Shown piece after piece: positions 5,144 through 22,725 of a stretch of 32,000 bases of DNA. Each line of letters opens with the position of its first letter. Positions within the stretch are counted from its first letter, which is position 1. Below the pieces are notes generated by a model. The model was not told the origin of the DNA. It saw only the letters and a list, made by a program, of their open reading frames with translations, and searched no databases. This DNA is from Desulfocapsa sulfexigens DSM 10523. GTDB lineage: Bacteria; Desulfobacterota; Desulfobulbia; Desulfobulbales; Desulfocapsaceae. A program made the position numbers and the translations under genes. The stretch lies in NCBI RefSeq assembly GCF_000341395.1, contig NC_020304.1:3570001-3602000 (forward strand). Direction: 5' to 3'.

Positions 5144-5325
5144 AAACTCACTATAATTGACATAGTCTCTTTGCAGCATTTTGAAAAGAATGAAAAAAAA
5201 CTTGGAAAAGATTAGTGTAGAAGATCAATCAGATTCTGACAGCAGGTCATGGGGCAAAGGAAGGGCAGGATTAGCTTTTGCAGTCAAACCCCACACCCTA
5301 CTGGACACCTCTGTTCGAGTAGTAA

Positions 5326-6207: not shown

Positions 6208-6245
6208 GGCGAAGCGTTTCCCTCCACCGTGTCCTGGGGGAGTCA

Positions 6246-6701
6246 GGGGTCAAGTCTGCCTTTGACCTTTGTAAACTTTTTTCCTTATCGTTCAAGGTCT
6301 TTTCTCGGTCCACTGTCACTCTCAATTCTAAATTCCACTCGCTGGACAACACTACTTTCCTAAAAATGAGAACACCGTTACCTGGCCTTATAGTCCCCCC
6401 AATTGAACCCCAAGGACAAAACTAACCTGTGTCAAGGGATTATTTGTCGATTATTCATCCAGTTACCTAGATCAGTCCCCATTGCCCACAGGCTGTTATA
6501 CAGAAAAAAAATTAGTCAGAAAAAAGGGGTCAAGCCTGCCCTTGACCTTTCTCTTCAATCGAGCAGCGAATGATATGGGCAACCCTTTAGTTTACCGACT
6601 ATTTTCCACATAGCCAAGCGCAAAAAAAACATGGGAGCAGAAATTCCAGGTTGATTTGATATCACACATTCACCACAAAGGTCAAAGGGAGACTTGACCC
6701 C
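6246..6701. mobile_element. MITE-like 456-bp element bounded by 25-bp terminal inverted repeats (GGGGTCAAGTCTGCCTTTGACCTTT), with a third internal copy
   Basis: Left copy at 6246..6270 (+). Right copy at 6677..6701 (-, 24/25 match). Internal copy at 6526..6550 (+, GGGGTCAAGCCTGCCCTTGACCTTT). Each copy contains a GGTCAA/TTGACC hairpin. No coding capacity and no obvious target-site duplication. Confidence 0.55.
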
Positions 6702-8011
6702 TTTTTTTTTACAATCAATTCACCTTCCAGGTTACCGAAAATATAATGCCTGTCTGTAAAATCCGGTACGCCGTTTCCTGCATAGGCATCTATGCCAAGG
6801 GTTGTGTCACAAAACTGCATATCATCGCCGGTGGGGGAAAGTGTATCTTCATGCATTGTTTGATAGAGAAAGAGGGAACGATCTTCGAGATATTGGGTTG
6901 AATATTCGGCAGCCACCAGATTGACATAGCCTGGCTGGTTGCCAGAGATGGCAAAACCAGCTAACGCGTTTAAGGCAAAAAGAAAGGCGTTGTCATTTTC
7001 TGCAGCACTTCGGAGAGCTTCGGCAGAATGCTCATGCAGTGATGTTACCGTCAAACCAGTCAGGCTATGGTCGTTGGCATACCCGGTTAATTCAATGGCA
7101 AGATCAACAGAGACCTGGGTGGGGTCAATACCGGCCTGAAAAACATTATTAACAACCGATAAGGCATGCTCATCGGGCATTTTTTCCAGAAAAGGGGTAA
7201 AGTCATCGGGATTATCACTGCCGCTGATGGTCGAGAAAAGATTGTAGATGCATAGAGAAGAGGTTAATCCAACGATACTGTGAGCAGTCAGTGGATTTTG
7301 TGCATCAACAGATATAATAATTGGTGTGGAGACGGAAAGGCCGACGGACGAAACAATATCGTCCGTTGCGACAATATTAGAAACTGGCAACACAGTAGGA
7401 AGAGCAATAGGATTATCTGGTGAAAGAGCACTTGAGATGGCTTCAATAATATTGCCGCCGACACCTGTCACCCCTGGTGCGTTGTAGATAAAGGTTTGTG
7501 TCACATCTGTAGAATATTCAAGTGTGAGATTGGTGGCAAGAAAACCGCCCAGTGAATGTCCCGTTACTAAAAAACCGGAATGAAGATCACCTAAATCCAC
7601 CCATTTTTCTACTTGCGCTGAAAGTGCTTTGTATTGTGCTTGGTATTCACTTGTGCCCAGTGCCCCAATATCAATAACGTCGGTAATAACGTCGTTAAGA
7701 TCGTTAGTGCCGCGCACGGCAATTACTTGTTTACCACTGCTATCCTCAAAAAGTGTTACTGATAAACCGGTAGGATTGAGAAAGGTATGCTCCAAACCAA
7801 ATTCGTCAACGTAACTCTCTTCGACAGTTCCATCGTATTGGTCGATAACATTCCAATTACTGGAGAAATCTTGGGCTTGGGTGAGCGTCATGCCATTGCC
7901 ATTGTTTTGTAATGCATCGGTATAATCTTTACCAGACATTCCTGGAGACAGATTTGAGTATGATGCAAGTGCAAGTTCAGCTTGTAGGTAATATTCACTA
8001 ATCGTACTCAT
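6662..8011 (-). CDS. class-3 lipase (GHSLGG) domain protein, 3'-truncated paralog lacking the RTX region (P1)
   Basis: 449-aa ORF with a lipase-like head (AVRGT ... VTGHSLGGFLA; GHSLGG codons at 7544..7561). The C-terminal ~180 aa are nearly identical to the 1153-aa paralog. That homology stops at 6712, and the last 16 codons (VKKKGSSLPLTFVVNV) read through a poly-T tract and the 25-nt repeat. Confidence 0.8.
   Translation of the reverse strand: MSTISEYYLQAELALASYSNLSPGMSGKDYTDALQNNGNGMTLTQAQDFSSNWNVIDQYDGTVEESYVDEFGLEHTFLNPTGLSVTLFEDSSGKQVIAVRGTNDLNDVITDVIDIGALGTSEYQAQYKALSAQVEKWVDLGDLHSGFLVTGHSLGGFLATNLTLEYSTDVTQTFIYNAPGVTGVGGNIIEAISSALSPDNPIALPTVLPVSNIVATDDIVSSVGLSVSTPIIISVDAQNPLTAHSIVGLTSSLCIYNLFSTISGSDNPDDFTPFLEKMPDEHALSVVNNVFQAGIDPTQVSVDLAIELTGYANDHSLTGLTVTSLHEHSAEALRSAAENDNAFLFALNALAGFAISGNQPGYVNLVAAEYSTQYLEDRSLFLYQTMHEDTLSPTGDDMQFCDTTLGIDAYAGNGVPDFTDRHYIFGNLEGELIVKKKGSSLPLTFVVNV
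6712..7255 (-). repeat. linker-module repeat shared with 16038..16581
   Basis: Collinear with a constant offset of 9326 nt and no indels. Near-identical by eye with scattered substitutions. Encodes ...NLFSTIS..DDFTPFLEKMPD.HALSVVNNVFQAGID...RHYIFGNLEGELI in both lipase paralogs. Confidence 0.85.
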
Positions 8012-8571
8012 TTTTTATATTCCTTTGTGAAAATTGAAGATTCAAAATTGGAGTTTCCAGTGATATCGAAGCATGAGAAACTTGATCCATGCCATAATCC
8101 AGGCAAATCACCACCACCTCGACCATAACGGACATATTCACCTAACACTTTACCATCAATACGTCTGACAATTCGAGTTTGCTTGCGTGTTACCTGAGGA
8201 TCATTTCTGTGGTAATAAAAAAGGTCACTTTCATAAAAATAATTATCCGTCGGTTTTGCTTTGGATTTGTCTGGTATTTTAATTCTACCAAATTTGTCAA
8301 TTAGGTCAGGCGGTAGCTCCACAGTTTCATAGACTTTTACACCACCATCTTTTGCACAGAGCTTCTCCACTTTGAGATCCCAATATATCTTCTTGCCAGC
8401 TACTTCCCAGAAAGTTCCGCCAAGCCAGACCGAAGAAAGAAGCACTCCAAGAAGGATATGTGAAATCTTTTGTGTTAAGTTCGCAGGCTTCCAATGTTGC
8501 CAGATACGATAGAGTACCCAGCTCACAAACAGCCAAATTGCAATCAGTGTTAATAAATAAATCCCGCTCAT
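8008..8571 (-). CDS. two-TM membrane protein, lipase-associated partner family member I1 (candidate immunity or accessory protein)
   Basis: 187-aa ORF. Its stop overlaps the lipase start (ATGA at 8008..8011). GGAGGG lies 7 nt upstream of the ATG. Two N-terminal hydrophobic helices separated by a basic loop. VYETVE motif and a C-terminal RRIDGKVLGEYVRY motif are shared in pattern with the ORFs at 12931, 17436 and 19443. Confidence 0.75.
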   Translation of the reverse strand: MSGIYLLTLIAIWLFVSWVLYRIWQHWKPANLTQKISHILLGVLLSSVWLGGTFWEVAGKKIYWDLKVEKLCAKDGGVKVYETVELPPDLIDKFGRIKIPDKSKAKPTDNYFYESDLFYYHRNDPQVTRKQTRIVRRIDGKVLGEYVRYGRGGGDLPGLWHGSSFSCFDITGNSNFESSIFTKEYKK

Positions 8572-8640
8572 GCTGCCACCCTCCAGTCAAATCTTGTGCC
8601 GTCGCCGTAATCACCCATAATGAAATCTCCGTGGATAAAT

Positions 8641-8894
8641 GGGGTCAGAGTAATTTTAAACTCCGCCCCATCAAGAAGATAAATAAAACAACAATCGTAG
8701 CAATCCATTATTTTTCACTAAGAGTGAAATAATTAACATCAAAACGGAGAAGCATCAACATCTAACATCTGTTATATTAGTACGTTATAGATGCCTAAGT
8801 GCTAACATCATTGTCATTTCAATGCCTCCAGATGTTTTCCTAAAAATTAAAGATAAAAAATAATAAAAACAACATTTTCAAGCTGTTCTCTGTT
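8641..8894 (-). repeat. conserved cassette-upstream region U (homologous to 22160..22378)
   Basis: Begins with the 32-nt element GGGGTCAGAGTAATTTTAAACTCCGCCCCATC (8641..8672). Contains a 39-nt block (8810..8848) matching 22289..22327 at 38 of 39 positions. Overall similarity is roughly three quarters by eye. Confidence 0.7.
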
Positions 8895-11290
8895 CGGTGA
8901 CAACGGGGTCGGACCAAATTAACAGTTTGAATATTAAACATTTTATCTCCAAAAGCAGATCTTTCTGGGGCTTAAAACACCCTTTTCAGTATCAAAAACA
9001 GTACTGTAAAGAATGTGGTTACAATAAAGCTAAAACCCCGATGGTACTCAACCGCTCTATCTCATCACTCTCAATCCCAACAAGCACAGGGCAAGTGAAC
9101 CTGATCACTCCCTGCATTTCCATAGAGTGCATCATCACCGGCTTCACCAAACAAGTTATCATTGTCAGTATCACCGTAGAGTTCATCATTACCGTTTCCA
9201 CCATACAGATTGTCTTCCCCCTGGCCTCCATATAACGCATCATCACCAATACCGGTTCCATCACTATTATCGCCATAGAGATAATCATTGTCTGATTCCC
9301 CGTATAAGAGATCATTCCCGTCTCCGCCCCGGAGTTGATCCTCACCACTTCCACCATACAATTCATCCATACCTGAACCGGTATTATCAGGGTTATCTCC
9401 TAAAAGAAGGTCATTTCCATCTCCGCCATAAAGTGAATCATCGTCTTCTCCACCGGCAAGACTGTCATTACCTATTTCTCCATGCAATGCATCATTGCCC
9501 AGACCTCCCTGGAGTACGTCATCGCCATGACCACCAAAAAGTGCATCTATACCGTCGCCACCAAAAAGATCGTCATTGTCATCATCGCCATAGAGGACAT
9601 CATTTCCTCCTGAACCGTAAAGCACATCTTCACCGGAGCCACCATGCAATTCATCATTTCCAGTACCACTTAAATCGCCATAATCACCATACAGATGATC
9701 ATCACCATCTCCACCGGAAAGGATATCGTCACCTCCCTCGCCAGCGAGTGCATCGTCACCGATCTCACCATAAAGGGAATCATCTCCTCCTCCGCCAAGC
9801 AGTTGATCATTACCCAGGCCACCGTAAAGTAGATCCTCACCGGTACCTGTGTTATTCCATTCATCTCCTCTTAAGACATCGTCACCATCTCCGCCGAAAA
9901 GCTGATCATTATCAAGGCCGCCATACATATCATCGTTACCCTCTCCACCATAGAGGATATCATTGCCTTCCTGGCCATAAAGCCTGTCAAGATCTTCTTC
10001 TCCAAACAAAACATCATTACCAAGTGATCCCTGAAGAAGATCGTCACCTGTGCCGCCCAGCAGATAATCATCTCCAGCGTCACCAAATAGCCTGTCAACA
10101 CCTTCTTCTCCAATGAGGGTGTCGTTGCCATTTCCCCCCATCAGGTTATCATCACCTATTCCGCCAAAAAGGATATCATTACCGTCTCCACCCCATGCGT
10201 TATCATTATCAGATTCTCCGTAGAGCTTATCATCACCACCCATACCAAGGAGTTGATCATCACCCAGACCACCATAAAGGGAGTCATTACCGTTTATTCC
10301 AAACAACGTATCGGAACCACCATAGCCATACACTGTAAAGGTGGAGAGAGCGGATACGTCACTGTCAAACAGGACAGTTTCACTTCCATCTGCATATTGG
10401 ATACTAAAATGATAATTCCAGGTATCGGCTGTTATCTGGCTCAGACTTGAAACTTCCATCTCATCAGTACCAGCCAGGGAGTTGGTGTTTGGAGTGGGCT
10501 CTACATAGTCAGCCAGATTGAAGCCGAAATCGCCCGAGGAAAAGGAGTTTATGGTAAAATAGAAATTACTGGCCAGGGAAAACAGGTTCAGCGTTTGATT
10601 GGTGGAGTCATAACGAACTCTGTAATTAGCATCTTCGTAGATGTCGCTGTTTTCCTGAATTTGATTAAAGGTGAGACCTGTTATCTGATTGGCTCCATAC
10701 CAGATGGTACCCTGATTATCCGCATCGTCAACAATATCGCCGACACCGATATGGTAGGTGTCATTGCCGATACCGCCGTAAAGGGTGTCTTGAACAAAAT
10801 CATCCACACCATCTATGCCTGCCCCATATAAGATATCATCTCCCCCAGCACCGTTTATTGTATCAATGCCGGTGCCGCCGGAGATGGTATCTTGATCACT
10901 ACTTCCGGTCAGGGTGTCCTGGCCTGCCCCACCTTCTATGCGGGCAATGTTGGAGACTGTTATTCCTGTTAAGTCTATGGTGTTGTCGCCTGCGGTTCCG
11001 GCCAGTATATTTAGTCCTTCTCCACCGTCTATTATTTCTATGGAGTTTTCTGCAAGGGAGAGGGTGTTTACTCGGATGGTGTCATCCAGGTTGCCTCCGA
11101 GGATTTTATCCTCATCACCAGTACCGCCGTTGAAGGTGTCGAAGGCTTCAGGATCTTCATCTGTGCCATGGATGATGAAGGTGTCGTTTCCGGCTCCTCC
11201 GTTCATGGTGTCGCTGCCGGAGCCTCCTTCGAGGATGTCGTTGCCGGCATTGCCGGTTAGGGTGTCATTGCCTGCCATGCCGTAGAGGTG
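8895..11290 (-). repeat. large direct repeat, copy 1 (RTX coding region plus 176-bp downstream tail); partner is 13784..16017
   Basis: Collinear near-identity by eye from the REP-like end (CGGTGACAACGGGGTCGGACC) through the whole RTX region up to the DHLYGM codons (11276..11290 vs 16003..16017). The length difference is 162 nt, explained by two in-frame indels of 108 and 54 nt. Confidence 0.9.
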
Positions 11291-12934
11291 ATCGTCACTG
11301 AGAGCACCAATCAATTTGGCGCTGTCATCTCCTTCCGTGCCAAAGATATAATCTCCATATGGAAGTTCTTCGTCGGGAGGATTGAGTTCAATACCTGATT
11401 GCAGATCATGAAAGTGTTTCTGCTCAGAGTAATTGTGCATGGTGTGGTAGAGGAATTTTGTTCTATCTTCGAAGTATTGTGATGAAAAGTTATCTAAATC
11501 TAACTCGTTGTTTGCATTCAAACTGCTATATTGACTATTCGGGCCCGTTATCGTGATGGGATTCAACCTTTGTAAAGCAAAGCGATATGCCATGCCAGTA
11601 CCATTATCTTGGCTTGCAAACGAAATAATGTCAGACTCTGAGATATCACCTAAAAATGATATTTCATATTGGCCTTGTGAAGATTGGGTTGCATTTCGAA
11701 CTTGAAATATCTTTTCATAGAGTTCTTCTCGAGCAACATCCCCGTTCTTTACGTCGAATGGTGAATAATCCTGTACGCATATTTCACCAAAGGTATTGAT
11801 AACCGTTTCGAGCGTTATATGGTTGTCTCTTCCTTGCCGATATGCATTGAAGACAGGGAGAAGAGATTGAAAAAACTGCGATCCATCCATCGAAGAATAC
11901 ATATCATCCAAGCGGCCAAAAAGGTCATAAACCGCCAGAGAATCTGTCATCTGTTCTTTTCCATGACCCGCAGTTGTTCCTGATAGAGATACAGATTCAA
12001 TAAATATTCCTTGGTGATCTCCTTGCTGACCGAGGGCAAACACACTGTCCATGGTCGTCATTTCCAGGAACTTATCACCAAAAATATTTAATATTTTCGA
12101 ACTCTCAAAAGAATCGCTTCCCCCAAGCATAGCAAAGAGGTTACGGATGTTGGTCTCGCCGTTCCCGCTCAAGCCACTAAGCGCTTCTGTCATATACCCA
12201 GCACCATTTATGGTCACAACATCATCACAGACAGAACCGAAAAGCCGTGAGAATGCAGCGGCCAGATGCCCACCCAAACTATGACCTACTGCTGTAACCT
12301 GTCCTTCAATATCATGGGATAACGCACCATATTGTCTTTCATCCGTGAATATTTCGTTCGAATAGACATCGGTGTTGATAGTGTATACCGTGCCGGTTGG
12401 CATATCGATTATGACATTATCCAATGTCCGCAGGTATAGTTCATATGGGCCGGCTACACCCAGAGGCATAGCAGTTTGTTCTGCCGCAAGTAGAGCCGTT
12501 TTGTCCGTCAACAGCTCCAATTCCGCTGCTTTATAGACGGTATTTGGAGCTGCATTTATTCTTTGCCAGTCGTTATACATGTCGACTATTTGCTTAATCG
12601 CCAGCCCATCGTAAACAATGTCACCACCGTCTGTAACGAGTAGATCGTCAATTCCCGGTTCCGTACCTCGGCATGCATAATGGTATTTGCCTGTGTTCTT
12701 ATTCCGAAAAAGAGTAGCTGAAAAGCCTGTATCGGTGTTGGGTTGGTGATAAATCACTTCCCAATTGTTGACAAAATCTTCAGCTTGCTCAGCTGTCATT
12801 TTGCCCTCAAAAGCGCTGTTTTGTAAAGCGTCTCTTATATCATCCTCAATAGTTAGATCCTCTATTTTATCAAAAAGAACGTAGGCCGCTTCAGACAATA
12901 ACGCCATATCGTAATAAATGGATGAACTGCTCAT
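9071..12934 (-). CDS. giant lipase-RTX protein (class-3/family I.3-like GHSLGG lipase head + hemolysin-type Ca-binding repeats), P2
   Basis: 1287-aa ORF. Head motifs are ACRGT and AVGHSLGGHLAAAF, followed by a unique middle region. Then come two blocks of GGxGxDxUx nonapeptides (several dozen units) separated by a non-repeat beta-rich module. The ORF ends only 13 aa after the last repeat (..GSDQVHLPCACWD). Confidence 0.9.
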   Translation of the reverse strand: MSSSSIYYDMALLSEAAYVLFDKIEDLTIEDDIRDALQNSAFEGKMTAEQAEDFVNNWEVIYHQPNTDTGFSATLFRNKNTGKYHYACRGTEPGIDDLLVTDGGDIVYDGLAIKQIVDMYNDWQRINAAPNTVYKAAELELLTDKTALLAAEQTAMPLGVAGPYELYLRTLDNVIIDMPTGTVYTINTDVYSNEIFTDERQYGALSHDIEGQVTAVGHSLGGHLAAAFSRLFGSVCDDVVTINGAGYMTEALSGLSGNGETNIRNLFAMLGGSDSFESSKILNIFGDKFLEMTTMDSVFALGQQGDHQGIFIESVSLSGTTAGHGKEQMTDSLAVYDLFGRLDDMYSSMDGSQFFQSLLPVFNAYRQGRDNHITLETVINTFGEICVQDYSPFDVKNGDVAREELYEKIFQVRNATQSSQGQYEISFLGDISESDIISFASQDNGTGMAYRFALQRLNPITITGPNSQYSSLNANNELDLDNFSSQYFEDRTKFLYHTMHNYSEQKHFHDLQSGIELNPPDEELPYGDYIFGTEGDDSAKLIGALSDDHLYGMAGNDTLTGNAGNDILEGGSGSDTMNGGAGNDTFIIHGTDEDPEAFDTFNGGTGDEDKILGGNLDDTIRVNTLSLAENSIEIIDGGEGLNILAGTAGDNTIDLTGITVSNIARIEGGAGQDTLTGSSDQDTISGGTGIDTINGAGGDDILYGAGIDGVDDFVQDTLYGGIGNDTYHIGVGDIVDDADNQGTIWYGANQITGLTFNQIQENSDIYEDANYRVRYDSTNQTLNLFSLASNFYFTINSFSSGDFGFNLADYVEPTPNTNSLAGTDEMEVSSLSQITADTWNYHFSIQYADGSETVLFDSDVSALSTFTVYGYGGSDTLFGINGNDSLYGGLGDDQLLGMGGDDKLYGESDNDNAWGGDGNDILFGGIGDDNLMGGNGNDTLIGEEGVDRLFGDAGDDYLLGGTGDDLLQGSLGNDVLFGEEDLDRLYGQEGNDILYGGEGNDDMYGGLDNDQLFGGDGDDVLRGDEWNNTGTGEDLLYGGLGNDQLLGGGGDDSLYGEIGDDALAGEGGDDILSGGDGDDHLYGDYGDLSGTGNDELHGGSGEDVLYGSGGNDVLYGDDDNDDLFGGDGIDALFGGHGDDVLQGGLGNDALHGEIGNDSLAGGEDDDSLYGGDGNDLLLGDNPDNTGSGMDELYGGSGEDQLRGGDGNDLLYGESDNDYLYGDNSDGTGIGDDALYGGQGEDNLYGGNGNDELYGDTDNDNLFGEAGDDALYGNAGSDQVHLPCACWD

Positions 12935-13503
12935 CGTTTTTCCTCACCGGTTTGTTTGTAAGTTTTTTTTAACTCACTAAATTCCTTTTTTTTAATAGCT
13001 GGCTGTCTCAGATGTGTCCAGAATTTAAGATCGCTTGAAGAACCACTATATATTTGCACGCGTTTGGCTAACGTCTCATCGGTCTTAGTATCGATAATGA
13101 GTTCTTCTTGTGTTACGACGGGAAGAATGGGTAAGCGATGTTCAATAAATACCCAACCAATCCGCTGATTTAATTTATACCCCCTTGTAATACCAGTAGC
13201 TTCATAAGAAGGTGACAACTTCTTCCAAGTCAAAGTCTCAGCAACTCCAGGGTTCTCTGCCTTCCACTGTTCCAGAGTCTTATAGACCCAGAAACCTGAC
13301 CTGGTATGGACGAGATATTTGAAGGTGATCAGTGTCGGCAGATAATCCCAGAAAACAAGGTTGTACATTATAAAAGCAACCAACCCGCCCCATAACCATG
13401 CCCGCCTGCCTCTATTCTTAGCCCACCGGACAGCAAGAACGGTAACTCCGATCGAAACTGCCAAATAAAACACAAAAAAAACAATTACCGCTAAACCGAA
13501 CAT
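12931..13503 (-). CDS. two-TM membrane protein, lipase-associated partner family member I2
   Basis: 190-aa ORF. Its stop overlaps the P2 start (ATGA at 12931..12934). GGGGAGG RBS upstream. Layout is TM1, basic loop (RWAKNRGRR), TM2. Motifs VYKTLE and LIIDTKTDETLAKRVQIY. Confidence 0.75.
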   Translation of the reverse strand: MFGLAVIVFFVFYLAVSIGVTVLAVRWAKNRGRRAWLWGGLVAFIMYNLVFWDYLPTLITFKYLVHTRSGFWVYKTLEQWKAENPGVAETLTWKKLSPSYEATGITRGYKLNQRIGWVFIEHRLPILPVVTQEELIIDTKTDETLAKRVQIYSGSSSDLKFWTHLRQPAIKKKEFSELKKTYKQTGEEKR

Positions 13504-13520
13504 TCTTCTACCTCCCCGTT

Positions 13521-13773
13521 AATACGGGGTCGGACCAAGCTAACATGCTGAATGTTAAACATTTTGTCTCCAATAATAGGTGTTTTTATGGCTTAGAGTA
13601 CCCTTTTCAGCATCAAAAACGGTGCTGTAAGCAATTTCAGGCTCTTTCAAAACAGTAGCATCTTTGACTGAAACTATGGAGCGCTTCTGTGCCCGGCTTG
13701 CAAGTTGCTGCTGAATATCTTCTGTAAATGATTTTCTGCCAACGGCACTGGACTCACTCCAATCTTGATTTCT
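13521..13773 (-). pseudogene. 3' fragment of the RAYT-type transposase gene with its REP-like end (type B)
   Basis: Near-identical to 18487..18739 of the intact unit. Encodes only the C-terminal ~73 aa (NQDWSES..KNTYYWRQNV) and lacks the HUH and Tyr motifs. Starts with AATACGGGGTCGGACCAAGC (13521..13540). Confidence 0.85.
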
Positions 13774-13783
13774 CAGCAAGAAA

Positions 13784-16017
13784 CGGTGACAACGGGGTCG
13801 AACCAAGTTAACAGTTTGAATATTAAACATTTTACCTCCAAAAACAGATCTTTCTAGAGCTTAAAACACCCTTTTCAGTATCAAAAACAGTACTGTAAAG
13901 AATGTGGTTACAATAAAGCTAAAGCCCCGATGGTACTCAACCGCTCTATCTCATCACTCTCAATCCCAACAAGCACAGGGCAAGTGAACCTGATCACTGC
14001 CTGTATTTCCATAGAGTGCATCATCACCGGCTTCACCAAACAGGTTATCATTGTCAGTATCACCGTAGAGTTCATCATTACCATTTCCACCATACAGATT
14101 GTCTTCCCCTTGGCCTCCATATAACGCATCATCACCAATACCGGTTCCATCACTATTATCGCCATAGAGATAATCATTGTCTGATTCCCCGTATAAGAGA
14201 TCATTTCCGTCTCCGCCCCGGAGTTGATCATCACCACTTCCACCGTACAATTCATCCATACCTGAACCGGTATTATCAGGGTTATCTCCTAAAAGAAGGT
14301 CATTCCCATCTCCGCCATAAAGTGAATCATCGTCTTCTCCACCGGCAAGACTGTCATTACCTATTTCTCCATACAATGCATCATTGCCCAGACCTCCCTG
14401 GAGTACGTCATCGCCATGACCACCAAAAAGTGCATCTATACCGTCGCCACCAAAAAGATCGTCATTGTCATCATCGCCATAGAGGGTGTCATTTCCTCCT
14501 GAACCGTAAAGCACATCTTCACCGGAGCCACCATGCAATTCATCATTTCCAGTACCACTTAAATCGCCATAATCACCATACAGATGATCATCACCATCTC
14601 CACCGGAAAGGATATCGTCACCTCCCTCGCCAGCGAGTGCATCGTCACCGATCTCACCATAAAGGGAATCATCTCCTCCTCCGCCAAGCAGTTGATCATT
14701 ACCCAGGCCACCGTAAAGTAGATCCTCTCCGGTTCCTGTGTTATCCCATTCATCTCCTCTTAAGACATCGTCACCATCTCCGCCGAAAAGCTGGTCGTTA
14801 TCAAGGCCGCCATACATATCATCGTTACCCTCTCCACCATAGAGGATATCATTGCCTTCCTGGCCATAAAGCCTGTCAAGATCTTCTTCTCCAATGAGGG
14901 TGTCATTGCCATTTTGCCCCATCAGGTTATCATCACCTATTCCGCCAAAAAGGATATCATTACCGTCTCCACCCCATGCGTTATCATTATCAGATTCTCC
15001 GTAGAGCTTATCATCACCGCCCATACCCTGGAGTTGATCATCACCCAGACCACCATAAAGGGAGTCATTGCCGTTTATTCCAAACAACGTATCGGAACCA
15101 CCATAGCCATATACTGTAAAGGTGGAGAGAGCAGATACATCACTGTTAAACAGGATAGTTTCACTTCCATCTGCATGTTGGATACTGAAATGATAATTCC
15201 AGGTATCGGCTGTTATCTGGCTCAGACTTGAAATTTCTATCTCATCAGTACCAGTCAGGGAATTGGTGTTTGGGGTGGGCTCTACATAGTCAGCCAGATT
15301 GAAGCCGAAATCGCCCGAGGAAAAGGAGTTTATGGTAAAATAGAAATTACTGGCCAGGGAAAACAGGTTCAGCGTTTGATTGGTGGAGTCATAACGAACT
15401 CTGTAATTAGCATCTTCATAGATGTCACTGTTTTCCTGAACTTGATTAAAGGTGAGATCTGTTATCTGATTGGCTCCATACCAGATGGTACCCTGATTAT
15501 CAGCGTCGTCAACAATATCGCCGACACCGATATGATAGGTGTCATTGCCGATGCCGCCGGAAAGGGTGTCACGGACATTGTCTTCCTGGTTGGTTAATGT
15601 ACCGCCATAAAGGATATCATCTCCACTTGAACCGGTTATGGTGTCGGCTCCACCTCCGCCTTCTATTCGGTTTATGTGGGTTACTGTGATGCCGGTTAGG
15701 TCTATGGTGTTGTCGCCGCTGGTTCCGGCAAGGATGTTTTCTCCGGCTCCTCCGTCTATTCTTTCTATGGAGTTATCTGCAAGGGAGAGCGCGTTTACTC
15801 GGATGGTGTCGTCCAGGTTGCCTCCGAGGATTTTATCCTCATCACCAGTACCGCCGTTGAAGGTGTCGAAGGCTTCAGGATCTTCATCTGTGCCGTGGAT
15901 GATGAAGGTGTCGTTATCGGCTCCTCCGTTCATGGTGTCGCTGCCGGAGCCGCCTTCGAGGATATCGTTTCCGCCGTTGCCGGTTAGGGTGTCGTTACCG
16001 TCCATGCCGTAGAGGTG
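13784..16017 (-). repeat. large direct repeat, copy 2 (partner of 8895..11290)
   Basis: See copy 1. This copy carries the single hybrid version of the 26-nt AGCCTGTCAAGATCTTCTTCTCCAAT motif (from 14870) where copy 1 has two versions 108 nt apart. Confidence 0.9.
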
Positions 16018-17421
16018 GTCTTCCTTGGAATTGCCTTCAATCAATTCGCCTTCCAGGTTACCGAAAATATAATGCCTGTCTGTAAAATCCGGTACGCCGT
16101 TTCCTGCATAGGCATCTATGCCAAGGGTTGTGTCACAAAACTGTATATCATCGCCGGTGGGGGAAAGTGCATCTTCATGCATTGTTTGATAGAGAAAGAG
16201 GGAACGATCTTCGAGATATTGGGTTGAATATTCGGCAGCCACCAGATTGACATAGCCTGGCTGGTTGCCAGAGATGGCAAAACCAGCTAACGCGTTTAAG
16301 GCAAAAAGAAAAGCGTTGTCATTTTCTGCAGCACTTCGGAGAGCTTCGGCAGAATGCTCATGCAGTGATGTTACCGTCAAACCAGTCAGGCTATGGTCGT
16401 TGGCATACCCGGTTAATTCAATGGCAAGATCAACAAAGACCTGGGTGGTGTCAATACCGGCCTGAAAAACATTATTAACAACCGATAAGGCATGCCCATC
16501 GGGCATTTTTTCCAGAAAAGGAGTAAAGTCATCGGCATTGTTGCTGCTGCTGATGGTTGAAAAAAGGTTGTAGACGTACAGGGATTCGACAAGAGTACCG
16601 ATAGAATGGTAGTGAACGGGGTTGAATGTACTATCGCTGATAGAAATATTGACATCGGCACTCCCGATATCAGTTCCAAGATCGGCGACAAGATCATGGG
16701 GTATATCCCACCAAGTTTCTGAGGATTTGACATTTGTTACCAGGCTGTCGACTCCGTTCTTATTAGACTCAAAGTTGGAATAAGCGTCATAAAGCTCTTG
16801 TGTGATTTCTACTGGCCCAAACAACGATTCACCGGTTATATCATCATAACCAATAAAGGCTTCTTTATAATATCTCCCATTACTTGTCGATAATTCTGGA
16901 GATTCCAGATCTTTTGCACCTGGAGAATTATAAGTGTAACTCTCATCAACAAAATCGGTATAGGTCGCGGTAAAGATCTGAGCTAATGCACCACCCAAGG
17001 AATGACCTGTAACAGTAAGCTTTTCTCCGCTTAATACCTTATCATCTTCTTGAAGCTTTTCGAAAAATGATACCATGTCTTCAAATTGGAGCGGCGTATT
17101 GCCTGCTTTTAGCCCGAGAATATCATCATCCCAATCAGTGCCAATCAATTGGTCGGTTCCACGGATGGCCAGTATTTTTTTACCACTATTAATGTCTTCA
17201 AACAACGTGGCGCTGAATCCGCTTTCTGGACCTATGTTGTATTCGGCGCTGGTGGCAAGGACATTGTAGTGCTCAACAAAATTATCAGCCTGTTTTTGAG
17301 TAAAATTACGGTCATTCTTTAGTGACTTTATAATGTCATCATCCAATGTAGTTTGTATGATATCAATATAGCTTGCATCAGCCAATTCACCAAATTGTAA
17401 CAATTCTGGAATAGTTGCCAT
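13960..17421 (-). CDS. giant lipase-RTX protein, P3 (different lipase head, same RTX chassis as P2)
   Basis: 1153-aa ORF. Head motifs are AIRGT and VTGHSLGGALAQIF. The linker is identical in type to P1. The RTX blocks and the C-terminus (..GSDQVHLPCACWD) are near-identical to P2. Confidence 0.9.
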   Translation of the reverse strand: MATIPELLQFGELADASYIDIIQTTLDDDIIKSLKNDRNFTQKQADNFVEHYNVLATSAEYNIGPESGFSATLFEDINSGKKILAIRGTDQLIGTDWDDDILGLKAGNTPLQFEDMVSFFEKLQEDDKVLSGEKLTVTGHSLGGALAQIFTATYTDFVDESYTYNSPGAKDLESPELSTSNGRYYKEAFIGYDDITGESLFGPVEITQELYDAYSNFESNKNGVDSLVTNVKSSETWWDIPHDLVADLGTDIGSADVNISISDSTFNPVHYHSIGTLVESLYVYNLFSTISSSNNADDFTPFLEKMPDGHALSVVNNVFQAGIDTTQVFVDLAIELTGYANDHSLTGLTVTSLHEHSAEALRSAAENDNAFLFALNALAGFAISGNQPGYVNLVAAEYSTQYLEDRSLFLYQTMHEDALSPTGDDIQFCDTTLGIDAYAGNGVPDFTDRHYIFGNLEGELIEGNSKEDHLYGMDGNDTLTGNGGNDILEGGSGSDTMNGGADNDTFIIHGTDEDPEAFDTFNGGTGDEDKILGGNLDDTIRVNALSLADNSIERIDGGAGENILAGTSGDNTIDLTGITVTHINRIEGGGGADTITGSSGDDILYGGTLTNQEDNVRDTLSGGIGNDTYHIGVGDIVDDADNQGTIWYGANQITDLTFNQVQENSDIYEDANYRVRYDSTNQTLNLFSLASNFYFTINSFSSGDFGFNLADYVEPTPNTNSLTGTDEIEISSLSQITADTWNYHFSIQHADGSETILFNSDVSALSTFTVYGYGGSDTLFGINGNDSLYGGLGDDQLQGMGGDDKLYGESDNDNAWGGDGNDILFGGIGDDNLMGQNGNDTLIGEEDLDRLYGQEGNDILYGGEGNDDMYGGLDNDQLFGGDGDDVLRGDEWDNTGTGEDLLYGGLGNDQLLGGGGDDSLYGEIGDDALAGEGGDDILSGGDGDDHLYGDYGDLSGTGNDELHGGSGEDVLYGSGGNDTLYGDDDNDDLFGGDGIDALFGGHGDDVLQGGLGNDALYGEIGNDSLAGGEDDDSLYGGDGNDLLLGDNPDNTGSGMDELYGGSGDDQLRGGDGNDLLYGESDNDYLYGDNSDGTGIGDDALYGGQGEDNLYGGNGNDELYGDTDNDNLFGEAGDDALYGNTGSDQVHLPCACWD
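16038..16581 (-). repeat. linker-module repeat shared with 6712..7255
   Basis: See 6712..7255. Confidence 0.85.
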
Positions 17422-17435
17422 CTCTAGCCCCCTAG

Positions 17436-18149
17436 CTAATTATCTTTTGATTTCAGTGTGTTATATATCAATACTTCACTATTACCTTTAAATGGGCAAA
17501 GTGTTCCAAGAGAACCATCAACATTGAGCAATGTCGCCCTAAGCCACCCTCTATTCCATCTGTACATTACTCGAATCCCCAAAGTCTCATTATGATGTCT
17601 GTCATTGATTTCCGTATAGATAAATTTATCTATAGTCGGTATTGCCAGGATTCTTTGGTCTTTGTTAGGCTGATAAGCTACCTCATACCTGCTGACTTCA
17701 TCAGGTTGCAATGGCTTCACTGCAAAACAAGGTATTTCCTGGTCAAAGGATTCTTTAAACTTATATTCATCCTTCTTTTTTGGCTTATAGCACCCTTCAG
17801 AACTTGCATCATTTAACCAATAACTACGAAAGAATTCACCGGTTTCTTCAACCTGGTAATCAATATATTTATAATTTTTATTTGGCATGCGGGGAGTACG
17901 TTTTATTCTCAATTCGCCCACATAAAACCCTTCCACATTCTCCACGGTCTTATAAATCTTCATGCCGGATTTAAATTTGCAGAAGTACCAGAAGGTGGGG
18001 TAGCCGATTATCACATCCCAGCTAGGAATTAGAGCCAGAATAATAATTCCAATGATTCTGCCTTTTGTTGATTTTGCGACCAAAACAATTACCAGTAATC
18101 CCAAAAGGAGGTAGATAGCTGCACCAAATATGACAAGAATCTGAATCAT
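17436..18149 (-). CDS. two-TM membrane protein, lipase-associated partner family member I3
   Basis: 237-aa ORF ending 14 nt upstream of the P3 start, with an AGGGGG RBS in the gap. Layout is TM1, KSTKGR loop, TM2. Motifs IYKTVE and YTEINDRHHNETLGIRVMY. Confidence 0.75.
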   Translation of the reverse strand: MIQILVIFGAAIYLLLGLLVIVLVAKSTKGRIIGIIILALIPSWDVIIGYPTFWYFCKFKSGMKIYKTVENVEGFYVGELRIKRTPRMPNKNYKYIDYQVEETGEFFRSYWLNDASSEGCYKPKKKDEYKFKESFDQEIPCFAVKPLQPDEVSRYEVAYQPNKDQRILAIPTIDKFIYTEINDRHHNETLGIRVMYRWNRGWLRATLLNVDGSLGTLCPFKGNSEVLIYNTLKSKDN

Positions 18150-18361
18150 TGCTCTCTCTCCTTTGTTTTTATCTCTCGGTGAAGCATGATAACAAGGACA
18201 AGACTTATCAAGACAATGATTCCGGGAGGTATGAGTAATATATAAAAATTATCTCCATCCTTTCCTTCCCTCATGGCCAGTCCAATCATCCGAACAAACC
18301 AGCTCGTACCAAATAATATCCCGGCATAGCCGACTAATAACAAAACTATTCTGAACATCAT
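18146..18361 (-). CDS. small two-TM membrane protein (71 aa), first gene of the cassette-3 operon
   Basis: Its stop overlaps the I3 start (ATGA at 18146..18149). Two hydrophobic helices. AAAGGTGAGAGA RBS-like sequence before the ATG. Confidence 0.55.
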   Translation of the reverse strand: MMFRIVLLLVGYAGILFGTSWFVRMIGLAMREGKDGDNFYILLIPPGIIVLISLVLVIMLHREIKTKEREQ

Positions 18362-18450
18362 TCTCTCACCTTTACTCTTTTTGAACTACTTTTTACCTCT
18401 TAAGAAAATGCCTAGAAAACCAAAACACGGGGTCAGCAAAACACGCAACA

Positions 18451-18482
18451 CGGAGTCAGAGTAAACTTAAACTCACCCCATC
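18451..18482 (-). repeat. degenerate third copy of the 32-nt element seen at 8641..8672 and 22160..22191
   Basis: CGGAGTCAGAGTAAACTTAAACTCACCCCATC versus GGGGTCAGAGTAATTTTAAACTCCGCCCCATC. It has a 1-nt deletion relative to the others. Confidence 0.6.
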
Positions 18483-18486
18483 TATT

Positions 18487-19434
18487 AATACGGGGTCGGA
18501 CCAAGCTAACATGCTGAATGTTAAACATTTTGTCTCCAATAATAGGTGTTTTTATGGCTTAGAGTACCCTTTTCAGCATCAAAAACAGTGCTGTAAGGAA
18601 TTCCAGGCTCTTTCAAAACAGTAGCATCTTTGACTGAAAGTATGGATCGCTTCTGTGCCCGGCTTGCAAGTTGCTGCTGAATATCTTCTGTAAATGATTT
18701 CCTGCCAACGGCAATGGACTCACTCCAATCTTGATTTCTTGTTAGGACGTTATTGTTTAGCTCAGCTGTTATCCAGTTAGTGTGCTCTTCGCGAAATCTG
18801 TTTTCATCCTGCATTGAAAAATAATCCAACAACATCTTCCTGTTGATAATGCCGTAACGCTTTGGAGGATTTTGAATTTCATTGTAACCACTATTTCTGT
18901 ATTCAGATGGATGTGATACGACGCCTGCCCTGACCATATTAAGATCAATATAGACCATGCATTTTGCAAGATGGTTGATTGTGTCAACGGCCGTGGCATG
19001 ATATCGGTCTTCCCAAAACGAACCTTTCCTCTGTTTCCGACTATTGAACTCCTGAGCTGTTCTTCCTGCAATTAACTGAAGACTTTGTGGAATAGTTTTT
19101 TCCCCTGTATCGACAACAAGTAAGTGGATATGGTTGGAAGTGACAATGTAATTTAGAACGCAAAGCCCATACCGCTTTTTTGCTTCGAATAACCAATAAA
19201 GCCAGCGTTTTCTGTCTTTTTCAAATTTCAGTAAAAACTCCTGCTTATGACATCGGTGTGTGATGTGCCAAACACAACCAGGAATATAATGTCTATTTGC
19301 TCGTGGCATGGTAGTTTAAATTTTCTTAGAAGGTTGTTTTGGACAACAAAAAGTTACCTTTAAGTGTTTATATGGCTTTTATTTCATAATATTTCTTGTT
19401 ATTCCTATATATTGGCTTGGTCCGACCCCGTATT
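18487..19434 (-). mobile_element. RAYT/IS200-like unit bounded by perfect 20-bp inverted repeats (AATACGGGGTCGGACCAAGC)
   Basis: 18487..18506 is the exact reverse complement of 19415..19434. The match breaks on both sides. The repeats enclose the 262-aa Y1 transposase ORF. This is the REP-flanked arrangement typical of REP-associated tyrosine transposases. Confidence 0.8.
18521..19309 (-). CDS. IS200-like Y1 (HUH) transposase, REP-associated tyrosine transposase (RAYT) type
   Basis: 262-aa ORF with N-terminus MPRANRHYIPGCVWHITHRC. HUH motif SNHIHLLV. Tyr motif YIDLNMVRAGVV (compare YxxxNPVRAGLV in COG1943/PF01797 proteins). Carries a ~100-aa C-terminal extension. Confidence 0.85.
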   Translation of the reverse strand: MPRANRHYIPGCVWHITHRCHKQEFLLKFEKDRKRWLYWLFEAKKRYGLCVLNYIVTSNHIHLLVVDTGEKTIPQSLQLIAGRTAQEFNSRKQRKGSFWEDRYHATAVDTINHLAKCMVYIDLNMVRAGVVSHPSEYRNSGYNEIQNPPKRYGIINRKMLLDYFSMQDENRFREEHTNWITAELNNNVLTRNQDWSESIAVGRKSFTEDIQQQLASRAQKRSILSVKDATVLKEPGIPYSTVFDAEKGTLSHKNTYYWRQNV

Positions 19435-19442
19435 CAACCGAG

Positions 19443-20390
19443 TTACCTCCGGTTTTCATGATATTTTTTTGATAATATTTTCAGCAAAGAATTATTTCTC
19501 CCTTGACGCGATCCATAAACATCTATTGATCCGAACAAAATCTTGTCAACAAACTGATAGGCCTGTTTGTCACCAAGCACCTGATGAAAATCAGGATTTG
19601 CACCGCCAAATTCGGAAAGCCAGTTCCCATATGCCATATACCTGCGGGAGAAGGCGATCACCTCGTTTTTCTCCATATCGGTGATGGTGATCTCGTCGGT
19701 GTGTAATAGTCTGGAGGCGGGGTAGCCGGTCTTTACCATGTTGAAATCCACCCGGTAGCGCATGGGTGGCAGTTTGTCCGGGGAAGCGAAGCCCTCAGCC
19801 CGATCCATGATGCTTTGTAATTCGCTTTTCCATGGTTCGTAATATGCACCAAACTCCGTAGAATTTTTTTCTATTTCTCTGATTGTCCGCCACAGTTCTC
19901 TGTTATCTAGACCCTTGCCACCCTTGCGGCGGACCTCCCTTGCACTTTCTTTCATAGCGTCCAGTTCCCGTTTTTTCTGATCCCGAGCTGGTCGCATTTT
20001 TTCACTCTCGGCAAAAGTTGAAGCATCGGCCCGGTACAGATAGATTTTCCCGTCATCGCCATTCACGGCCAGGGCCTGGAGATGCACGCCGTCAAGATAT
20101 TTTTCAACCATGCTTTCACGAAAGTGTTTGTCAAATCCCGGCCAGACATTGTCCTGCCAATACACAGAAATCGGCGCTTCAACGGTCTGATGAATCACCT
20201 GCAAGGGCTGCTTGCCGTAATACTCAAACAGCAAGTTGCACAGGATCGGCCGCCAGAATGGGCCGAAGATGAGCAGCAGCACTCCCAGCCACACCACTGC
20301 CTTCGACTTCGTCCACCGCTTGACGAGATACAACACAATCGCTCCCGCAAGCAGATAAATGGTTACAACAATAAGCAACGCTATTCCCAT
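19443..20390 (-). CDS. two-TM membrane protein, partner family member I4 (orphan: no adjacent lipase gene)
   Basis: 315-aa ORF. Layout is TM1, KRWTKSK loop, TM2. Motifs IHQTVE and ITITDMEKNEVIAFSRRYMAY. Its stop lies 8 nt from the RAYT inverted repeat. Confidence 0.7.
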   Translation of the reverse strand: MGIALLIVVTIYLLAGAIVLYLVKRWTKSKAVVWLGVLLLIFGPFWRPILCNLLFEYYGKQPLQVIHQTVEAPISVYWQDNVWPGFDKHFRESMVEKYLDGVHLQALAVNGDDGKIYLYRADASTFAESEKMRPARDQKKRELDAMKESAREVRRKGGKGLDNRELWRTIREIEKNSTEFGAYYEPWKSELQSIMDRAEGFASPDKLPPMRYRVDFNMVKTGYPASRLLHTDEITITDMEKNEVIAFSRRYMAYGNWLSEFGGANPDFHQVLGDKQAYQFVDKILFGSIDVYGSRQGRNNSLLKILSKKYHENRR

Positions 20391-20464
20391 ACTGTTATTC
20401 TCCCGTGGGTATTTTGGTGTTCAGAAACAGGAAAACTCATTTGCCCCGGCGCGTAACAACGGGC

Positions 20465-20491
20465 GTGACAACGGGGTCGAACCAAGTTAAC
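20465..20491 (-). repeat. REP-like element, type A (GTGACAACGGGGTCGAACCAAGTTAAC)
   Basis: Same sequence as the ends of the tails at 8897..8922 and 13786..13811. Here it stands alone, directly abutting a type B copy. Confidence 0.75.
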
Positions 20492-20493
20492 TT

Positions 20494-20791
20494 AATACGG
20501 GGTCGGACCAAGCTAACATGCTGAATGTTAAACATTTTATCTCCAACAATACGTGTTTTTATGGTTTAGAGTACCCTTTTCAGCATCAAAAACGGTGCTG
20601 TAAGCAATTTCAGGCTCTTTCAAAACAGTAGCATCTTTGACTGAAACTATGGATCGCTTCTGTGCCCGGCTTGCAAGTTGCTGCTGAATATCTTCTGTAA
20701 ATGATTTTCTGCCAACGGCAATGGACTCACTCCAATCTTGATTTCTTGTTAGGACGTTATTGTTTAGCTCAGCTGTTATCCAGTTAGTGTG
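20494..20791 (-). pseudogene. 3' fragment of the RAYT gene with REP-like end (type B, second copy)
   Basis: Near-identical to 18487..18784. Encodes HTNWITAELNNNVLTRNQDWSES...KNTYCWR only and lacks the HUH and Tyr motifs. Confidence 0.85.
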
Positions 20792-20794
20792 AAC

Positions 20795-20960
20795 GCTAAC
20801 ACGGGATCGGACCAAGCTAACAACTTGAATATTAATAATTTTGTATCCAGAAACAGCCGTTACCTGGCCTTAGAGTGCCCTTTTTGCCATCAAAATGTGT
20901 GTCGTAAGAATCTTGACCAGCAACATTAGCATCCTTAACGGTTTATATTTTGGTCAACGA
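20795..20960 (-). repeat. divergent RAYT-3'-like tail with REP-like end (type C) downstream of the DUF4915-like gene
   Basis: GCTAACACGGGATCGGACCAAGCTAAC followed by sequence recognisably related to the RAYT 3' end (..GKKGTLRPGNGCFWIQN in translation). Much more diverged than types A and B. Confidence 0.55.
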
Positions 20961-21037
20961 ACTATTTCAAAGCTCAACGGTTATCCAACCACTGTATTAT
21001 TCACAATAATTAATTTTCTTTTTGTAAAGGATTTTTG

Positions 21038-22123: not shown

Positions 22124-22159
22124 AACTTGTCAGGCTCTGTTTGTTTTTCCTGCATAAAA

Positions 22160-22378: not shown

Positions 22379-22456
22379 GCAATATTGACTTTTTTTGCTA
22401 CTTTTCACTTTTCCACTAATGACACTCTTTATTTTGACAGGTTTGGTTAATGCGGC

Positions 22457-22676: not shown

Positions 22677-22725
22677 ACAAGTAGGTGGGCGTCGGTGCCT
22701 TTCCAGATGGTCCTTATTTCAAAGA

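Follow-up and report, generated by a model that had tools for sequence, protein, structure and literature searches.

A diverging superfamily of candidate immunity proteins encoded upstream of lipase-like RTX proteins in Desulfocapsa sulfexigens DSM 10523 and other bacteria

To our knowledge, interbacterial toxin–immunity pairs have been charted in detail for the secretion types V, VI, and VII, and for type I secretion there is little beyond small bacteriocins, Cdz, and the speculative case of FrpC and FrpD from Neisseria meningitidis. The lipoprotein FrpD, whose gene precedes frpC, attaches to the N-terminal domain of the type I-secreted RTX protein FrpC, and an immunity role was proposed for it by the authors of that work (PMC6759196). 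This pair is the nearest described precedent for the genes reported here. We analyzed a 32,000-nt stretch of the genome of Desulfocapsa sulfexigens DSM 10523 (contig NC_020304.1, positions 3,570,001 to 3,602,000; hereafter the window), which contains four genes, I1 to I4, for proteins with predicted N-terminal membrane anchors. Three of them lie directly upstream of genes for lipase-like proteins, Lip1, Lip2, and Lip3. As in FrpD–FrpC and in Smlt3025–Smlt3024, the I genes are located immediately upstream of genes for RTX proteins of the type I-secreted kind. The N-terminal domain of the RTX protein is, however, a class-3-lipase-like hydrolase in our case, the genes form multi-cassette arrays, and the anchor is a transmembrane (TM) hairpin. 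Neither FrpD (PDB 5EDF, code per PMC6759196) nor Smlt3025 was among the 50 Foldseek matches listed for the I proteins. From the comparative sequence evidence given below, I1–I4 are probably cognate periplasmic immunity (inhibitor) proteins of the lipase heads encoded downstream of them.

Several other described systems share some of these features. The combination of a lipase toxin with an adjacent, fast-diverging, periplasm-facing immunity protein, which is often a lipoprotein, and the occurrence of orphan immunity genes are reminiscent of the Tle–Tli pairs, in which type VI phospholipase effectors are matched by periplasmic immunity proteins. The I proteins, however, have no Tli sequence or fold match (Pfam, NCBIfam, PDB profiles, Foldseek), many of them are anchored by a TM hairpin, and their partner is the N-terminal head of an RTX protein encoded beside type I genes rather than a type VI effector. 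VgrG, PAAR, and Hcp were absent from the precomputed Pfam listings of 10 loci; no systematic search for them was made. AprI/Inh is a small periplasmic inhibitor encoded beside a type I-secreted RTX serralysin and is thought to protect the periplasm of the producer. An I protein would likewise be a small periplasmic inhibitor encoded beside a type I-secreted RTX enzyme, but no Inh family match was obtained for the I proteins in the Pfam scan. As far as we know, AprI is neither polymorphic nor arrayed, and its target is a protease. The lipase-specific foldase Lif is also a membrane-anchored periplasmic protein in an operon with a lipase. Its gene lies downstream of the lipase gene, whereas the I gene lies upstream; Lif serves a type II-secreted lipase, whereas the I partner is a type I RTX protein; and the I genes persist without lipases.

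The contact-dependent inhibition system CDI (cdiA-CT/cdiI) and the Rhs system combine a variable toxin domain with a conserved delivery region and an adjacent cognate immunity gene, as do the genes studied here. Furthermore, their tandem truncated orphan modules share a homologous junction with the full-length gene, and a corresponding junction in the window is 97% identical over 537 nt. The polarity is reversed in our case, with an N-terminal head, an upstream I gene, and, in other genomes, orphans located upstream of the full-length gene. Export is of type I as opposed to type V or VI, and copies of a REP-associated tyrosine transposase (RAYT) recur between the cassettes. Fusion of RTX repeats to a toxin domain at the N-terminus is on record for another toxin superfamily (PMC12419801). 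Our literature search revealed no direct description of a type I RTX lipase with an immunity protein, and none of the family PF26363. As far as the libraries and literature covered show, the I superfamily is unnamed and the arrangement of a lipase-RTX gene with an upstream I gene is undescribed. It would amount to a toxin–immunity system in which export is of type I, the toxin head is N-terminal, and the immunity gene lies upstream.

The four reading frames reported in the initial annotation (187–315 aa) were recovered at the same positions by an open reading frame (ORF) check, and the junctions with the lipase genes, namely two 4-nt overlaps and one 14-nt gap, are as described there (Table 1). 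Hydropathy analysis also reproduced the reported layout of TM1, basic loop, and TM2, with two N-terminal hydrophobic segments parted by a basic loop. This loop contains 3–4 Lys/Arg residues in I1, I3, and I4; the second hydrophobic segment is weaker in I2, where the loop RWAKNRGRR is strongly basic. The [VI][YH]xT[VL]E motif is present as VYETVE (residue 80) in I1, VYKTLE (73) in I2, IYKTVE (65) in I3, and IHQTVE (66) in I4, and was found in none of 848 background six-frame ORFs of 150–400 aa. The C-terminal pattern proposed for all four proteins has three to four residues between an Asp/Asn and a Glu/Lys. Scored with 3–5 residues permitted in this spacer, it matched I2, I3, and I4 and did not match I1, whose RRIDGKVLGEYVRY has two residues at that place and thereby also falls outside the proposed spacing. 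The pattern scored in this way occurred in 5 of the 848 background ORFs, and both patterns in the given order in none. Family alignments contain invariant cysteines, which are C72 and C167 in I1 and C57, C120, C141, and C218 in I3. The I2 protein of the window lacks both conserved cysteines, and its relative at a locus in another genome (L001) has both.

The AlphaFold models of I1 and I4 (predicted local distance difference test scores of 86 and 85, respectively) both display a TM helical hairpin. It is followed by a short strand bearing the YxTVE motif and by a beta-sheet domain, in which the C-terminal motif folds as a beta-hairpin. The soluble domain of modeled I4 has a helical insertion at residues 123–196. 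Scans of I1–I4 against Pfam and NCBIfam returned nothing at E ≤ 0.1 except chance-level TM or coiled-coil matches, and searches of the PDB with sequence profiles of the I families gave zero matches. Foldseek comparison of the I1 and I4 models with the PDB revealed no significant similarity among the 50 matches listed, the best E values being 0.05–0.07; both models gave one and the same list of weak matches. PelC, the top match (E ~0.05), was treated as meaningless at TM-scores of 0.1–0.25.

Direct pairwise comparison of I1–I4 by BLAST and phmmer yielded weak matches over the N-terminal ~70 aa only and did not settle the question of homology. Family profiles were built from gathered homologs: 12 for I3, 58 clusters for I4, 407 clusters for I1, and a single I2 relative, that in L001. 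Comparison of these profiles gave probabilities of ~96% over the anchor module for the pairs I2–I3, I2–I4, and I3–I4 and of 86% across the whole length for I1–I3. The null for these scores was obtained by shuffling template columns within each segment (TM1, loop, TM2, and post-TM). The observed values exceeded it with z = 8.6–12 for the I2/I3/I4 pairs and z = 7.7 for I1–I3, so that the resemblance in these pairs is not a matter of TM composition; I1–I2 and I1–I4 were marginal against the same null. The soluble parts alone, with the TM hairpin removed, were also marginal (P about 1e-3 to 1e-2), and in three separate pairs the best local match was exactly the C-terminal motif.

The survey of 1.84 billion representatives with the I3-family profile revealed 436 proteins at E ≤ 0.001, including many intermediates. 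The hidden Markov models (HMMs) of I1 and I2 also match 66 of 147 database representatives, and 63 of the 147 are matched by all four family HMMs. A profile built from intermediates matched I1 (98.9%, E 1e-17, residues 1–181), I2 (99.0%, E 2e-18, residues 1–153, C-terminal motif included), I3 (100%), and I4 (98.3%, E 2e-14, residues 1–80 only). One intermediate, L051:7707-8252, joins the I3-type 'PLWDVIPG...LC.TEAG..VY' with the I1-type 'ELPAEYWD' and 'FRYWGGW...C'. Judged from these profile links, I1, I2, and I3 are homologous throughout, that is, over nearly their full length. The statistical relatedness postulated in the initial annotation for all four proteins stands accordingly for I1–I3; for I4 it stands over residues 1–80 and not for the soluble domain. 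I4 has the anchor module, the first strand, and its genomic setting in common with the others; for its soluble domain, homology is unproven. Among the proteins collected, P0245 (542 aa) consists of two fused, complete I-type units in tandem, both of which have their own TM hairpin and soluble domain.

For the study of gene neighborhoods, the I1 alignment was run against one genome per species. It gave 202 matching stretches, of which 78 loci were kept; they come from Desulfobulbales, Desulfuromonadales, Thiodiazotropha, Nitrosomonas, Rhodocyclaceae, Gallionella, Sulfuricella, and others. The set comprised 86 loci in all; ORFs were called and searched with the family HMMs and a head HMM. The linkage to lipases noted in the window extends to these genomes: 109 of 135 evaluable I-like ORFs are followed by a head homolog, and an I gene precedes 105 of 126 head ORFs. 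No more than 20 nt separate the two genes in 103 of the 109 I–head pairs, and 48 pairs have a 4-nt overlap. At least two I genes are present in 35 of 83 loci. Genes for the ABC or HlyD components of type I secretion were identified in 13 of the 22 loci that span 15 kb or more. Examples of an intact locus with secretion genes are those of Desulfuromusa kysingii DSM 7343 (L025) and Nitrosomonas sp. Nm51 (L062); I1-family genes are also present in Desulfuromonas thiophila.

Relatives of I3 in L001 and L003 are encoded directly upstream of head-RTX proteins of 1,845 to 2,433 aa, which are followed by OEP, ABC, and HlyD genes. The gene order on a Candidatus Thiodiazotropha contig (L004) is ABC, HlyD, I, a 636-aa head with RTX repeats, a fragmented I2-type gene, and then heads of 536, 509, and 3,168 aa; the latter two are each preceded by an I gene, and the last one has RTX repeats. 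Relatives of I4 precede a phospholipase-like RTX protein of >3,227 aa in L086 and a 477-aa head in L087; an isolated orphan relative is located beside an RTX C-terminal fragment in L085. In other genomes, arrays of I genes and truncated heads lie upstream of the full-length gene. One locus (L039) has six I genes, five with head stubs of ~140–160 aa and one with a 387-aa head; this array and those in L081 and L061 resemble orphan immunity arrays. Truncation points of the orphan heads, inspected for a common breakpoint, are scattered, with a minor cluster at the GHSLGG codons. Peptidase_C39 matches on the ABC transporters were considered as a sign of bacteriocin-type export with N-terminal leaders. 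They were set aside because RTX exporters of the HlyB type also bear a C39-like domain.

Lip1, Lip2, and Lip3 all begin with an alpha/beta-hydrolase head bearing GHSLGG, and Lip2 and Lip3 continue into ~20 RTX repeat units. Going beyond the initial annotation, we recognize Lip1–Lip3 as heads of type I-secretion RTX proteins. Lip3 scored 23.0 bits with Pfam Lipase_3 (cutoff 22), relatives of the Lip proteins bear precomputed matches to Pfam PF26363 'Phospholipase-like', and the similarity of the Lip3 head to PDB sequences was limited to the nucleophile elbow of esterases. Comparison of 68 heads from many genomes showed the following elements to be invariant or almost invariant: an R-G-T motif, an Asp, the GHSLGG serine, an N-x-P-G motif, and a His. 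The three heads of the window retain every one of these elements. At least three RTX motifs were detected in 44 partners, which reach lengths of up to 3,333 aa. In full-length relatives, the repeats are followed by ~90 aa of non-repeat sequence at the C-terminus, such as '...LVxAMAAF...WQ'. One further protein was seen next to a head gene. Encoded at 6348–7133 of L087, immediately ahead of a phospholipase-like RTX gene of >2,067 aa, it is 261 aa long and has several cysteines and a single hydrophobic segment near its N-terminus. No Pfam family matches it, and it is unlike the I superfamily by eye, not having been compared with the I-family profiles; it may represent a second, unrelated partner family for the heads.

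Besides homology and synteny, three patterns were observed in these loci: co-variation of I and head types, retention of orphan I genes, and exchange of the membrane anchor. The nearest-neighbor head shares the I type in 63 of 68 cases, and mean bit scores between heads are 150–169 within an I type against 73–95 between types. I genes are intact, in the sense that the C-terminal end of the HMM is reached, in 33 of 36 cases beside heads that stop short of the catalytic His and in 24 of 26 without any head. A lipobox signal peptide (e.g., 'LLLPLVAC|SS') takes the place of the two TM helices in 26 of 106 I1-type ORFs. Such lipoprotein forms of the I1 family, ~150 aa in length, occur in Betaproteobacteria (L035, L039, L048, L049, L062, and L070) and are still encoded ahead of RTX lipases of 2,500 to 3,200 aa. 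Since they carry the same soluble domain, this domain should work in the periplasm, which agrees well with the periplasm-facing orientation predicted in the initial annotation. The invariant cysteines within the soluble domain point the same way: they would fit periplasmic disulfides and, together with the basic loops, suggest a periplasmic location of the two-TM forms as well. The immunity function proposed there gains support from co-variation, retention, anchor exchange, and the conserved cysteines alike.

The proposed mechanism would be as follows. The I proteins would face the periplasm, anchored by the TM hairpin at their N-terminus, which a lipoprotein signal replaces in other lineages. 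The head would be the variable toxin domain at the N-terminus of large RTX proteins, and these would leave the cell through a type I system of the HlyB/HlyD/TolC type. In the periplasm, the I protein would bind and neutralize the matching head, either delivered by neighboring kin or belonging to the cell itself and exposed during export, and the inner membrane would be spared lipolysis. An I gene and its head behave like a polymorphic cassette, and arrays of I genes with truncated heads build up ahead of the full-length gene.

Several points weigh against this immunity function. Binding, neutralization, toxicity of the heads, antibacterial use, and the periplasmic topology of the two-TM forms are all inferred from the patterns above. 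The model gives no route for a type I-secreted RTX protein into the periplasm of a target cell. A dedicated chaperone or tether would likewise produce co-variation and tight linkage, and the orphan I genes might simply be young remnants. Foldseek and PDB profile searches of the I proteins revealed no significant structural similarity to solved immunity proteins, and the soluble domain of I4 has no demonstrable homology to those of I1–I3. Type I secretion genes are absent from the window and from the 10 kb to its right, the right flank containing housekeeping genes only, and the lipases of the window lack the C-terminal secretion domain.

Among the alternatives, docking is the one that survives best, although we regard it as unlikely. 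The I proteins would then be periplasmic docking or retention partners of the N-terminal head, without protective function, and the giant RTX protein would be held at the envelope or surface of its producer. Such a role would be comparable to the binding of FrpC by FrpD or to the retention of LapA-type adhesins. It would agree with the position of the I gene ahead of an RTX gene and with its product being sometimes a lipoprotein, both as in FrpD/FrpC, and with the adhesin-like character of many partners, which are giants with cadherin and Big domains; co-variation of I and head fits any specific binder. A plug, however, would have no need of the catalytic Ser, His, and Asp, which are intact across 68 heads. 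The I genes also remain intact when partnerless (24/26) or beside dead fragments (33/36), the two-TM forms in the inner membrane would be unable to tether a protein to the cell surface, and FrpD similarity was not seen among the 50 Foldseek matches listed, none of which was significant.

The initial annotation also considered membrane-anchored, Lif-like foldases or secretion adaptors for the cognate lipase. Tight translational coupling to the lipase gene, a membrane anchor with a periplasmic domain as in Lif, and the agreement of I type with head type would all suit such a role, yet it seems quite improbable. The substrates of type I secretion bypass periplasmic folding, and the partners here are RTX proteins encoded beside type I secretion genes. 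A foldase or adaptor is disfavored because it would not have a substrate to fold in the periplasm and would be useless without a lipase, whereas I genes are retained where no usable lipase is left. Moreover, no Lipase_chap or other Pfam or NCBIfam match was found, the AlphaFold models have a TM hairpin and beta-rich soluble domains in contrast to the single N-terminal anchor and all-helical periplasmic domain of Lif, and neither Foldseek nor sequence profiles gave a significant match to Lif or to any solved structure.

We give equally little weight to a different membrane function of the I proteins, such as signaling, operon regulation, or an accessory role in transport, with linkage to the lipases reflecting co-regulation only. 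The I proteins have no recognizable functional domain, and I3-type modules include a further small ORF that encodes two hydrophobic stretches, both of which would be compatible with this view; rapid diversification matched to head type, orphan arrays, and an interchangeable anchor nevertheless typify the binders of conflict systems rather than housekeeping accessories. Finally, hardly any credence is left for the idea that I1–I4 are not one family and resemble each other through TM composition and chance motifs: pairwise similarity is indeed confined to the TM region, the soluble parts alone reach P values of 1e-3 to 1e-2, and I4 aligns over its first 80 residues only, but the N-terminal module scores z = 7.7 to 12 over the segment-shuffled nulls, the intermediate profile joins I1, I2, and I3 nearly full length at E 1e-17 or better, the four family HMMs together match 63 of 147 representatives, the N-terminal motif occurs in 0 of 848 background ORFs, and the gene context is common to all four families, so that this reading is already largely refuted for I1, I2, and I3.

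If the I proteins are periplasmic immunity proteins, their genes in the window may now serve mainly as stand-alone (orphan) protection, because the lipases are truncated, the lipase of I4 is lost, and secretion genes are missing from the window. Lip2 and Lip3 end within the RTX repeats ('...GSDQVHLPCACWD') and lack the ~90-aa C-terminal region; judging from this truncation, they are probably not secretable, and the lipases of the window are probably not exported. The DNA at their stop codons is the out-of-frame 3' end of a TIGR03032 gene, with 'VGIESDEIERLSTIG' in place of the 'VGFESDEIERMITIG' of the intact gene. A REP-like segment follows the TIGR03032 remnant, and the whole junction is duplicated with 97.75% identity over 1,111 nt. 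The heads of Lip1 and Lip3 differ up to a sharp switch, from which nt 6712–7248 of Lip1 and nt 16038–16574 of Lip3 are 97% identical (537 nt); Lip1 then stops before any RTX repeat. The RTX regions of Lip2 and Lip3 are 87–98% identical. As to I4, the displacement of its lipase suggested in the initial annotation is supported. No remnant of a lipase head was found downstream of I4 by tblastn. The loss in the window is regarded as secondary because relatives of I4 elsewhere precede RTX lipases (L086 and L087), and the succession of an I4-type gene and a RAYT recurs in L006.

The whole array of 17.5 kb (~5143–22700) is bracketed by a direct repeat of 238 bp (93% identical; 4906–5143 and 22700–22931), which corresponds to the duplicated last 67 codons of a comM/yifB Mg-chelatase-like gene (22726–24246). 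From this arrangement, the array looks as if it were a genomic island that had inserted into the 3' part of comM, at its very end; an integrase was not seen. A segment of 160 nt located upstream of I1 (8732–8893) is 74% identical to 22210–22369, just upstream of the TIGR03032 gene. This recurrence is one further sign that the array grew by duplications including the TIGR03032 flanks.

The inverted repeat reported 8 nt past the I4 stop codon is real: a perfect 20-nt repeat, GCTTGGTCCGACCCCGTATT, occupies 19415–19434 and 18487–18506 at the two ends of the RAYT, and no match to it was obtained in any of the shuffled sequences. RAYT-like Y1 transposase ORFs, complete or fragmentary, were present in 21 of the 86 loci (among them L005, L006, L007, L009, L014, L019, L025, L036, L037, L044, L046, L047, L058, L086, and L087). 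They are co-oriented with the I genes in 30 of 32 cases and usually located 12–760 nt upstream of an I gene. Such an enrichment was unexpected because RAYTs are described as typically single-copy per genome (PMC5581495). The order in L009 and L047 is I, truncated head, RAYT, I, and full-length RTX lipase; that in L006 is I4-type, RAYT, I4-type, RAYT, I4-type, and head. DNA identity among the RAYT copies of one locus is 80–100%. The I genes located after these copies are not similar to one another in DNA in the window and in L009, and those in L006 are 79–88% identical. The window contains RAYT pieces at 22355–22645 and at the three positions given in Table 1, and the RAYT and REP segment stops 16–124 nt ahead of three unrelated I cassettes. 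Our literature search revealed no direct description of a link between RAYTs and toxins.

The RAYT/REP copies may be an upstream homology arm for the exchange of cassettes, or its agent. In the extended version of this idea, which we put forward as tentative and rather doubtful, the loci would encode undescribed type I-secreted polymorphic toxins, giant RTX proteins with exchangeable N-terminal lipase heads that each have their own I immunity protein encoded upstream. Head and I gene would be swapped through recombination between a 5' arm, formed by a co-oriented RAYT/REP copy, and a 3' arm, formed by the conserved linker and RTX region. Displaced I genes with truncated heads would then stay behind as orphan arrays, and a 'domesticated' REP-associated tyrosine transposase would help to diversify a toxin system. 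RAYT genes inside the arrays offer a concrete place to seek the cellular role of these transposase relatives. Should the immunity function hold, hundreds of giant proteins annotated as 'RTX toxin' or 'calcium-binding protein' would have to be re-read as polymorphic antibacterial lipases in Desulfobulbales, Desulfuromonadales, Thiodiazotropha symbionts, Nitrosomonas, Rhodocyclaceae, Gallionella, and other lineages, and the I genes would be a simple genomic marker of such RTX lipases.

All genes of the array are on the minus strand of the window. In the deposited annotation, UWK_03219 to 03228 are hypothetical proteins or 'Ca2+-binding protein, RTX toxin'; I1, I2, I3, and I4 correspond to the hypothetical proteins UWK_03220, 03222, 03225, and 03228, respectively. 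Listed from 5' to 3' along the coding strand, the array consists of the TIGR03032 gene, RAYT 3' fragment, I4, complete RAYT, 71-aa ORF, I3, Lip3, RAYT 3' fragment, I2, Lip2, I1, and Lip1.

Table 1. Features of the I/lipase array in the window (window coordinates).
Feature	Position	Strand	Description
I1	8008..8571	-	187 aa; two-TM protein of the I superfamily; 4-nt overlap with Lip1 start
I2	12931..13503	-	190 aa; I superfamily; 4-nt overlap with Lip2 start; both conserved cysteines absent
I3	17436..18149	-	237 aa; I superfamily; four family-invariant cysteines; 14 nt upstream of Lip3
I4	19443..20390	-	315 aa; N-terminal 80-aa module and helical insertion in the soluble domain; orphan, followed by RAYT
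Lip1	6662..8011	-	449 aa; class-3-lipase-like head (Ser153, His244) and linker; RTX repeats absent; truncated module
Lip2	9071..12934	-	1287 aa; lipase-like head (GHSLGG at 217) and RTX repeats; ends within repeats
Lip3	13960..17421	-	1153 aa; lipase-like head (GHSLGG at 139) and RTX repeats; 3' end truncated as in Lip2
Small ORF	18146..18361	-	71 aa; two hydrophobic stretches (by eye two TM helices); 4-nt overlap with I3 start
Complete RAYT (Y1 transposase)	18485..19434 (gene 18521-19309)	-	Between I4 and the I3 module
RAYT 3' fragment and REP 20-mer	13519..13830 (RAYT part 13830-13555)	-	97% identical to the full copy; ends 16 nt upstream of I2
RAYT 3' fragment and REP 20-mer	20492..20815 (RAYT part 20815-20537)	-	97% identical to the full copy; ~100 nt upstream of I4
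TIGR03032 3'-end remnant, out of frame, and REP-like segment	8895..9093	-	Provides the Lip2 stop codon
TIGR03032 3' remnant, second copy, and REP-like segment	13784..13982	-	Provides the Lip3 stop codon
Intact TIGR03032 gene	21038-22123	-	

The 71-aa ORF, for which no family match was found, is kept ahead of I3 relatives in L001 (9789–10004) and L002 (3–272), both of which encode the same I3 relative, P0011. Small ORFs also precede the I4-type genes in L086 and L087 and are not homologous to the one in the window. Two long His/Arg-rich ORFs on the plus strand, 9127–10116 and 14016–14897, are antisense to the RTX repeats and were dismissed as by-products of the repetitive GGxGxD coding sequence. 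Downstream of Lip1, the window encodes a Ser/Thr-rich protein of 293 aa (5326–6207, minus strand), homologs of which adjoin I/lipase arrays in L003, where a precomputed Pfam match to MAFA_adhesin is listed, and in L030, L031, and L055.

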